Origin: Saccostrea echinata
Taxonomy: Eukaryota
NCBI RefSeq assembly: GCF_033153115.1
Contig: NW_026889781.1
Span: 5,828,001 to 5,892,000 of the forward strand
Direction: 5' to 3'
Length of the DNA stretch: 64,000 bases
The first letter of the stretch is position 1, and the number at the start of each line of letters is the position of its first letter. Below are positions 2,004-3,805 of this stretch, one piece after another. Position numbers and translations under genes: made by a program. Under the pieces are notes generated by a model. The model was given only the letters and a program-made list of their open reading frames with translations. It ran no database searches and was not told the origin of the DNA.

Positions 2004-2166
2004 ATGGACTTAATTATGGCAGAAAGACGAGAAAGCTGTGAAATAGAGCCGATAATTGGAGGCACACTGGGAGGCTTTGTATTTATAATTATTCTGCTTC
2101 TTGTTGCCATCATACTGTACAAAATTAGGAAACGATTGATAAATTGGAAACGATGGATAAATAAAG
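2004..2166 (+). CDS. TM exon of gene 1
   Basis: 23-aa hydrophobic stretch with GGxxGG followed by basic stop-transfer KIRKR; GT donor at 2167. Confidence 0.75.
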
Positions 2167-3805
2167 GTTTGCATCTGGTTTCTTATCAAAGATTGAAATA
2201 TCGATAGCATTTTCGTGTTTAGCCATTTTATATTATAACATTACATTATTTACTAACTGTTGTAATTAATATATTAATTTGTTAAAAAAAAGATGTTCAG
2301 GTGAGAATATAGATACAAATTCATGTATTTGTATATAGCAGCTTAATGCTCTGCGTAATGTTCGGATTCATTTTAGGCAAAAGTGATACCACTAGCAGGT
2401 AATTTTGATTTAATATTTTCAATTATCATATAAAAGACGTACATTTTTTGTAACAAAGAATAAGAAAGGTGCCGTATAATTTAATGGAATGTAAAAACAT
2501 GTATGCCTGATTACAATTAAATTAATATGCACGTCTTTTGAATAAAAAAAGACAACTTTCTGGCACTTACGTTGATCAAACTTTACCCAGTGAAGATCAC
2601 CATTATCAAGGATTTTCTACTACTATTTGCAAAGGTAACGTTTTTCAGTTTTCTACATAAATAAACATATACACAACCTCTGTAATTTGTAAACCTATAT
2701 TTGCGATGATAACCACTACCAATTTAAAATCAGCAGAAGTAGGCTAAAAGCATTATAATATCAGCAAAGATAACGTCCAACAATCTTCTACCAATATCAC
2801 CAATGGTAAACGATATATTTTTTTCTACCCATATCGACAAGCATAACTTTTATCAATTTTCAAGCAATGTCAGCAAAGTAACTTCTACAAATTTCCTTTC
2901 TGTATCAATGTCAACAAACGTGACCTCTAATATTCTACTAATTGCAGAAAAAGTAACAACTAATTTTTTAACAAATATTAGCAAAGGAAACATATTTAAC
3001 AGGGCGTGAAGTTTTTCGATTGTTTTATATGACTAAAAAGATTAAACGTACACACATTTAGTTGCAAAATATTATGTCAATATATTTGCAGTGTATAAGA
3101 GGATGTCTTTTGTTTAATTTTTTTCATTTTTTCGTTTTAAGATGCAGTGAACACAAATGCTTACGAAAAGATTCAAGGTATATAAAACTGAAATTTATTA
3201 TAATAAAAAATAGGTTTATTATATGCATAATTTACATTTAAAGATAATTGATTGATTCATTCAGTAGTATTTTCTTTTTTTTAACAGAGTGTTTTGAGAA
3301 AGATAAAAGGTAAAACCTTAAGCATAAATTAGATATGAAAAAAAAAATGACAATTTATGACAAACTTTCTTAAAATTAAAGTGGTTTTTATTTAACAGTA
3401 TTTTCTTATAGATCTGATTATATGGAATTAACACAGTCATGTATACGAAAAGAACAGGGCACGTACAAAAGAGGAAAAACGGGTAGTTTGTTACAGAAAC
3501 ATTTTTCTGACATTTTTTACATGTATCTAGACAAAGGAATTTTGTTTTACCAAGAGGTAATCTAAATCTCTTGCACTTATTTATAGGACAATGCACTTAT
3601 CTATGATGACCCATAGAAAACATTATGATCTTATTATTATTATCTATTTAATGATATTTTTTTATATACCAATACATAGATTAAGCATCAACTTTTTCCG
3701 TAATCTTTTTAAGAGAACATTAAATATTGATGGAAATCTGATTTTCAATTTTAAGATTTCCTTTTTGTTTTATTTTCAGGTGGAATATACGCTAACGTTA
3801 AGTAG
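2004..3805 (+). CDS. Small single-pass membrane protein with a multi-tyrosine (ITAM/ITIM-like) cytoplasmic tail; 5' end uncertain
   Basis: Phase-compatible GT-AG exons 2004(or 2023)-2166, 2377-2398, 2591-2634, 3142-3177, 3288-3309, 3412-3482, 3780-3805 give ...ERRESCEIEP-IIGGTLGGFVFIIILLLVAIILY-KIRKRLINWKRWINKGKSDTTSSEDHHYQGFSTTICKDAVNTNAYEKIQECFEKDKRSDYMELTQSCIRKEQGTYKRGKTGGIYANVK*. AATAAA at 3901. Confidence 0.65.

Follow-up and report, generated by a model that had tools for sequence, protein, structure and literature searches.

A transmembrane segment and tyrosine-motif tail built from short exons in Saccostrea echinata, probably the 3' end of an immunoglobulin-type receptor gene

The window, that is, the whole stretch of 64,000 nucleotides of Saccostrea echinata DNA analysed here (assembly GCF_033153115.1, contig NW_026889781.1, positions 5,828,001 to 5,892,000), is AT-rich (26-36% GC) and carries near its start, on the plus strand, a gene made of short exons. 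Its transmembrane (TM) exon (2023..2166) encodes a short stalk with one Cys, an uncharged TM helix and a basic juxtamembrane stretch; it follows a likely phase-1 splice acceptor CAG (2020..2022), placed from the starts of paralog alignments, and its donor at 2167 is a joint in the X1 and X2 contigs of public sequencing runs. The TM segment is strong, with a best 19-residue Kyte-Doolittle mean of 2.9. Together with six tail exons, the TM exon forms a single open frame in the translation of the spliced model, closed by a TAG stop at 3803-3805, with junction phases 1-2-1-1-2-1 and GT..AG ends for the six exons downstream of the TM exon. Exon 2 (2377..2398; 22 nt; phase 1 to 2) has joints on either side in X1 and X2, and exon 3 (2552..2634; 83 nt; phase 2 to 1), which carries YVDQ (2568) and YQGF (2604), begins behind an AAG acceptor, with the cut of the contig joint 2396->2550 shifted by +2. 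Exon 4 (3142..3177; 36 nt; symmetric phase 1 to 1) holds YEKI (3162), the first tyrosine of an ITAM-like pair, and is placed by the fit to X1 depth given below. Exon 5 (3288..3309; 22 nt; phase 1 to 2) forms the spacer of that pair and is followed by the joint 3307->3410 in X1 and X2, and exon 6 (3412..3482; 71 nt; phase 2 to 1) contributes the second tyrosine of the pair, within SDYMEL (YMEL at 3419), as well as an unconserved tyrosine (YKRG, 3464). The last coding exon (3780..3805), placed by the X1 depth fit and the colinear C-termini of the paralogs, encodes YANV (3788), the sixth tyrosine of the tail, and the stop; candidate polyA signals lie 3' of it at 3859 and 3901. Three internal exons measure 36 nt or less, those of 83 and 71 nt being simply short.

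Junction mapping, named as a check in a preliminary description of this DNA, was achieved in part. Introns 2167-2376, 2399-2551 and 3310-3411 coincide with GT..AG joints in X1 and X2 contigs, that is, at least three of the six introns among the joints listed, and the other three joins, on either side of exon 4 and just before the last coding exon, are inferred from the X1 depth fit and the colinear paralogs. The contigs placed on positions 1-7300 of the window come from four public runs (two samples, one study) whose RNA status is a guess; none of the five matching runs is recorded as RNA, and each had 0.05-0.09 of the words. A seven-exon spliced contig plus one paralog contig reproduces the X1 mean depth to two decimals in eight of eight bins over 1953-3904 (six without a free parameter, two with a fitted end), an X1 depth of 0.46 at 1709-1952 being unexplained by the model. 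The spliced contig spans an 18-nt tandem duplication (2127..2162, plus strand; six juxtamembrane amino acids, in frame) that is missing in both paralogs and marks this copy, and the contig thus represents this gene. Among the joints listed for X3 and X5 contigs, none of this copy's three GT..AG joints was found; contig cover of the last exon is absent in X2, X3 and X5, which was not weighed as evidence. The multi-exon TM gene with a tyrosine-motif tail, missed by the open-reading-frame track, that the preliminary description had proposed is therefore borne out by the open frame, the joints and the depth fit. Its junction phases and GT..AG ends also hold, whereas its exon range of 22-71 nt, taken here to imply a 44-nt exon 3 from 2591 (our reconstruction), fails for that exon: such an exon predicts a depth of 2.77 against 4.02 observed in X1, and joint and depth give 83 nt from 2552.

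In the contigs, exon 3 is entered through an A-rich AAG acceptor (2531-2551 region) with 8 of 18 pyrimidines; a more typical in-frame CAG lies at 2588-2590, whose use was not seen in the contigs and which, as an alternative acceptor, would drop YVDQ. Exons 2-3-4 and 5-6-7 (2377-3177 and 3288-3805) follow the same pattern of a 22-nt exon of phase 1-2, a longer exon of phase 2-1 and a short exon with a tyrosine. The nucleotide similarity of the two blocks is weak (matched by 9 of 1000 shuffles in a post hoc comparison), and the tail may possibly stem from an old internal duplication of an exon triplet. Intron 3 (2635-3141) contains degenerate copies of the end of exon 3 and its donor (family D1, four copies of 28 nt, 71-75%), the best of which (2963-2997) has a score of 36 where 300 shuffles gave at most 30, the other copies being borderline; such copies are possible raw material for new micro-exons. 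An 88-aa open reading frame in the same intron (2743-3009) was rejected as coding, with no Pfam match and near-zero contig depth. Upstream, in what is presumably an intron, lies a non-coding MITE-like element of about 1,030 nt (650..1681, strand not assigned), TA-flanked with terminal inverted repeats, which we take to be a Tc1/mariner-type MITE. Contigs have loose ends at 648/650 and 1681-1683 and a summed depth mostly of 100-500, indicating high copy; the element has internal inverted repeats (890-913/1158-1181 and 960-978/1094-1112) and is inserted in other repeated DNA.

Elsewhere in the window, a gene for a type II membrane protein occupies 8364-15689 on the minus strand, with a TM exon (about 15490-15690), an IgGFc-binding domain, two small exons and a C-type lectin exon. 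It is colinear with the S. cucullata proteins P0002 and P0003 (67-72% over the main domain); the IgGFc-binding domain corresponds to the open reading frame 10929-12230, all 10 named relatives of which come from Saccostrea, and the small exon at about 13917-13995 seems to be duplicated at about 12938-13014. On the plus strand, an astacin (M12A) metalloprotease exon was found at 60606-60929 (Pfam E=5e-16) within 55165-60929, where the open reading frame 55165-55554 looks by eye like an earlier exon of an astacin gene and has no Pfam match. The open reading frame 52515-52799 encodes about five copies of a 9-residue tandem repeat, again with no Pfam match.

Two relatives of the gene at 2022-3805 were identified, both in S. 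echinata itself. When 1.84 billion proteins were searched by phmmer with the 47-aa TM exon, three matches reached E<=0.001, two of them true relatives and both automatic gene models: P0012 (XP_061190048.1, LOC133197881; 146 aa), identical at 86 of 127 positions over TM and tail (68%), and P0013 (XP_061190049.1, 'cell adhesion molecule 2-like'; 484 aa), identical at 74 of 127 (58%). The third, the fungal protein P0014, matches the TM alone (33%) and was set aside as reflecting hydrophobicity. In P0013, the shared TM and tail come after about 356 residues that include Ig domains and, probably, FN3. Pfam families Ig_3, ig, I-set and C2-set_2 score above cutoff and fn3 below it (E=0.0075), matches to Ig/FN3 chains of titin, PTP-delta and SYG-2 occur among 12 PDB sequences at E<=1e-5, and the N-terminus is hydrophobic by sequence inspection rather than by signal-peptide prediction. 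The Cys pattern indicates two whole Ig domains (the first from spacing alone), the C-terminal part of a third and one FN3 domain; since the third Ig domain lacks its first Cys, the P0013 model looks incomplete, making truncated gene models plausible here. A single-sequence AlphaFold model of P0013 (pLDDT 35.6) is informative for the TM helix only. P0012, the closer paralog, is annotated with just 19 residues ahead of the shared region and no ectodomain; nothing matching these 19 residues was found in either the window or P0013, and no Pfam family was found for P0012.

No ortholog from another species was retrieved by phmmer among the 1.84 billion proteins or by a word-index protein search. The latter returned none of 41 candidates for the TM exon against longer proteins and, for P0013 residues 345-484, only P0013 among 81 candidates (lengths 266-847); it also missed P0012, so these blanks are weak and a lineage restriction of the family is only suggested. 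A metagenome scan with P0012 confirmed 0 of 399 pattern matches and gave no ectodomain exons for this copy, and in the ESM Atlas the best match of the TM exon (0.82) is a lead only. The two protein accessions and the LOC number have no mention in the searchable literature, which leaves out most subscription journals, and within that literature no earlier account turned up of this family, or of a mollusc skipping an ITAM micro-exon.

Paralog alignments also point to the 5' boundary of the TM exon. In tblastn, P0012 and P0013 align from the same position, 2022, where a codon straddles the AG at 2021-22; the six preceding codons (2004-2021) resemble neither paralog, and an in-frame TAA stands at 1995. 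Because the similarity ends at this AG, the simplest and likely reading of the alignments is a phase-1 acceptor at 2022, with the ATGs at 2004 and 2016 inside an intron and an ectodomain encoded beyond the 5' edge of the window. The start at 2004 or 2016 and the ectodomain of 10-15 aa considered in the preliminary description were not confirmed, homology beginning only at the AG and the upstream codons being unmatched. The acceptor itself is weak (pyrimidine-poor, 9 of 18). By depth arithmetic, contig cover of the TM exon begins at about 2019-2020 and not at 2004 or 2016, which fits an acceptor at 2022 and was not counted as evidence, since contigs cannot show a start and derive from one study. 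Comparison of the P0013 ectodomain with the window detected no ectodomain exon (best E=0.19), a CAG/GT donor is absent from 1-2019 (a weak test), and no listed contig connects the TM exon with any upstream exon, among the joints listed. Given the lack of ectodomain exons in the window and the MITE-like repeat at 650-1681, the ectodomain, if any, would lie more than 2 kb upstream. A decayed FN3 exon within 1684-2022 was considered and not accepted: positions 1907-1948 weakly resemble the end of the P0013 FN3 domain, with a borderline, non-significant score of 36, which 9 of 150 shuffles and 1 of 37 window controls also attained. The same positions fall within an unusual AAGTAATCAACA-rich stretch (1734-2006).

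The motifs previously read from the tail (YQGF, YEKI, YMEL 15 residues on, SDYMEL and the C-terminal YANV) are all present in the spliced frame. In YEKI-x11-YMEL the tyrosines stand 15 residues apart, a distance kept in all three copies. The ITAM form YxxL/I-x(6-12)-YxxL/I is found in the window copy and in P0012, and P0013 has it only when Met is accepted at +3. Stricter forms do not fit, with Thr rather than D/E at -3 of the first tyrosine and a spacing of 11 rather than 6-9; D/E at -3 belongs to the consensus as given in PMC6994640, and the spacing of 6-9 to that in the text on Hydractinia (10.1101/2022.03.04.482883). The ITIM consensus [I/L/V/S]xYxx[I/V/L] is matched by S-x-Y-M-E-L in three of three copies, its tyrosine being the second ITAM tyrosine, so that the two motifs are not independent. 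The x11 pair proposed in the preliminary description stands, and the ITIM as a motif of its own does not. When the tail was shuffled 100,000 times, ITAM(6-12) arose in 1.9%, ITIM in 14.9%, YxN in 26.7% and all three in 0.2%, for motifs picked post hoc. Of the six tail tyrosines, five are identical in all three copies, compared with 35 of the 80 remaining columns, a difference which rests on three recent paralogs and is alone not significant (Fisher p=0.07). For the three residues after those five tyrosines, 11 of 15 columns are invariant versus 24 of 66 elsewhere; the p=0.0006 obtained for motif columns includes the selected tyrosines and is hence biased. Conservation of the tyrosine motifs, another check named in advance, is therefore seen among the S. 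echinata paralogs, no other-species ortholog having been found in the searches above. YVDQ and YQGF are invariant in both paralogs, and docking sites differ elsewhere: this copy and P0012 have YEKI and YxN, P0013 two YxxM sites, YEKM and YSDM, YxN being described as a Grb2 motif and YxxM as a p85 motif in PMC3342071. NPxY is absent from all three tails. Cysteines occupy residues 5, 81, 96 and 112 of the TM-plus-tail translation, with none beside the inner TM end and no juxtamembrane CxxC.

With moderate confidence, the locus is interpreted as the 3' end of a gene paralogous to an Ig/FN3 surface receptor, with its ectodomain exons likely 5' of the window and a tail that likely signals via tyrosine phosphorylation. 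Since a close relative is a full-length Ig-type receptor, the gene likely encodes a receptor rather than a stand-alone adaptor; points that speak against a full-length receptor include the annotation of the closer paralog without an ectodomain, the weak acceptor at 2022 and the stretch 1907-1948, where a decayed exon could lie. A large upstream ectodomain, which the preliminary description had said would overturn its proposal, exists in the paralog P0013. The LAT/PAG-type adaptor of that proposal is probably wrong, in view of this large ectodomain, the homology from AG 2021-22 and the lack of CxxC, and the full-length receptor, too, has the ectodomain Cys on which it drew. What keeps the adaptor idea alive is only that P0012 is annotated without an ectodomain and that the gene's own 5' exons are out of view. 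It is an unlikely reading, by which TM and tail exons would have been partly duplicated, with a start from a short upstream exon or from the in-frame ATG at 2004 or 2016, to give a subunit that pairs with a full-length Ig receptor or acts as a scaffold. The 146-aa P0012, the two ATGs, the lack of ectodomain exons in the window, the MITE-like element 340 nt upstream and the chance that 1907-1948 is a decayed exon are consistent with it. Nevertheless, the six codons before 2022 are unlike either paralog, the P0012 N-terminus has no counterpart in the window or in P0013 in a setting where truncated models are plausible, the protein has neither CxxC nor a charged TM residue, and the FN3 trace is not significant.

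Improbable, too, is a gene in which a single Ig/FN3 ectodomain, encoded upstream, can be joined by splicing to one or another of a tandem series of TM-tail modules (the present one and those of the P0012 and P0013 types). Three related tails with a single annotated ectodomain and a phase-1 boundary common to all would agree with such an arrangement, for which Hydractinia Alr1.3/1.4, with alternative TM and tail exons as described in 10.1101/2022.03.04.482883, offer a precedent; however, whole-gene tandem duplication combined with imperfect annotation accounts for the same data, and the TM exon is joined to no upstream exon among the contig joints listed. Finally, a decaying duplicate, that is, transcribed and spliced leftovers of a copy without its 5' part that make no functional protein, appears very unlikely: no protein identical to the TM exon came from phmmer or the word-index search, and a possible FN3 remnant, a transposon upstream and a private 18-nt duplication are in its favour, but splice sites and frame are intact over seven exons, that duplication is in frame, the motifs are kept despite 32-42% tail divergence, and the word-index blank is weak given that P0012 was missed as well.

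If the locus is part of an Ig/FN3 receptor gene, as favoured here, a ligand or cell contact would cluster the receptor, a Src-family kinase would phosphorylate the tail, and the YEKI-x11-YMEL pair would recruit a tandem-SH2 kinase, Syk or Shark. This proposal is drawn from the ITAM spacing and Shark recruitment of Draper and from oyster CgIgR and CgSyk. Other SH2 proteins would bind at YVDQ, YQGF and YANV, YxN being of the Grb2 type, and docking sites that differ between copies may give related receptors different outputs. By analogy, an immune or adhesion role in haemocytes would be the likeliest setting.

The ITAM-like pair is spread over three exons, and its first tyrosine sits in the symmetric 36-nt micro-exon 4, whose skipping keeps the frame and leaves the ITIM-consensus tyrosine alone of the pair. 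Three contigs carry foreign letters between window matches; on translation by hand, two match P0012 (11 of 12 residues in one, exact in the other) and the third matches P0013 exon 5. This last contig, from X2 (2634->3411), runs from exon 3 straight to exon 5 and so skips exon 4; it is a single contig of depth 4.89 (below 5, possibly an error) and stems from the paralog, not from this copy. A paralog-type joint in X2 (2620->3147) includes exon 4. Skipping of exon 4 is thus a possible activating-to-inhibitory switch. An on/off switch of one micro-exon and, in its boldest form, an array of interchangeable TM-tail modules (with a shared ectodomain or none) bearing different SH2-docking codes is a doubtful proposal; if true, the TM-tail array would be the invertebrate equivalent of activating and inhibitory receptor pairs.

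Oyster IgSF receptors with ITAM/ITIM tails have already been described (CgIgR, CgNCAM1), so another one is modest news. The gene adds an apparently unannotated spliced paralog, in a family whose lineage restriction is suggested and whose tails vary at SH2-docking positions. A Draper-length ITAM on an Ig-type receptor bears on whether so long a spacing is recognised by oyster Syk or Shark, and exon 4 on whether a mollusc receptor can be switched from activating to inhibitory by one micro-exon. An ectodomain-less adaptor, for which LAT/DAP12-type subunits serve as the analogy, would matter more if true, as an invertebrate analogue of those subunits; the evidence leans against it.

Among known systems, the oyster CgIgR is reported in PMC6994640 to have five Ig domains, a TM segment and an ITAM, and to co-precipitate CgSyk. 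Like the probable receptor described here, it belongs to the oyster IgSF and bears a tandem YxxL/I motif, but it is described with five Ig domains and no FN3, and an acidic residue stands at -3 in its ITAM, whose tyrosines are 12 apart, against 15 and no such residue here. CgIgIT2 appears as a title in reference lists, and the review PMC11999971 seems to merge it with CgIgR. Pacific oyster CgNCAM1, as described in PMC11841013, has three Ig domains, one FN3, a TM segment and two ITIMs, and interacts with CgSHIP2. Compared by description, it resembles the layout inferred for P0013, in which Ig, FN3 and TM follow a hydrophobic N-terminus, and has a tyrosine-motif tail; it is, however, reported as inhibitory with two ITIMs, in contrast to an ITAM-like pair with one overlapping ITIM consensus. 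The Hydractinia Alr family comprises clustered IgSF genes with 1-3 Ig domains, an FN3-like spacer, a TM segment and ITAM/ITIM tails, as presented in 10.1101/2022.03.04.482883, and is alike in its alternative tail splicing, which includes a 22-bp exon. In the ESM Atlas, the top feature match of P0013 was an Alr2 cluster (0.95), with nephrin-like, VSIG10-like and other IgSF clusters at 0.92-0.94 in the same search, so that the Alr2 match is not specific and indicates no special link. Vertebrate TM adaptors (LAT, NTAL, PAG, LAX and GAPT; PMC3342071 describes CxxC as present in LAT, NTAL and PAG and absent in LAX) are similar in their single TM segment and non-enzymatic tail with several tyrosine motifs, including YxN. 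They differ in that a single YxN occurs here against four or five in GAPT, NTAL and LAX as given in that source, there is no CxxC, and the paralog ectodomain is large. Membership of the Draper/MEGF10/CED-1 group was ruled out, since the EMI/EGF ectodomain and NPxY of that group are both absent here and P0013 has an Ig ectodomain; the resemblance is one of working alike only. The Draper ITAM tyrosines Y934 and Y949, described in PMC6219719 as necessary and sufficient for Shark recruitment, are 15 apart, and this distance is shared between Draper-I/II and the present tail. Draper splice isoforms are reported to switch from ITAM to ITIM (PMC4503800, PMC8092387), Draper-II gaining a separate ITIM tail in these accounts, whereas here the skipping of exon 4 would unmask the second ITAM tyrosine.
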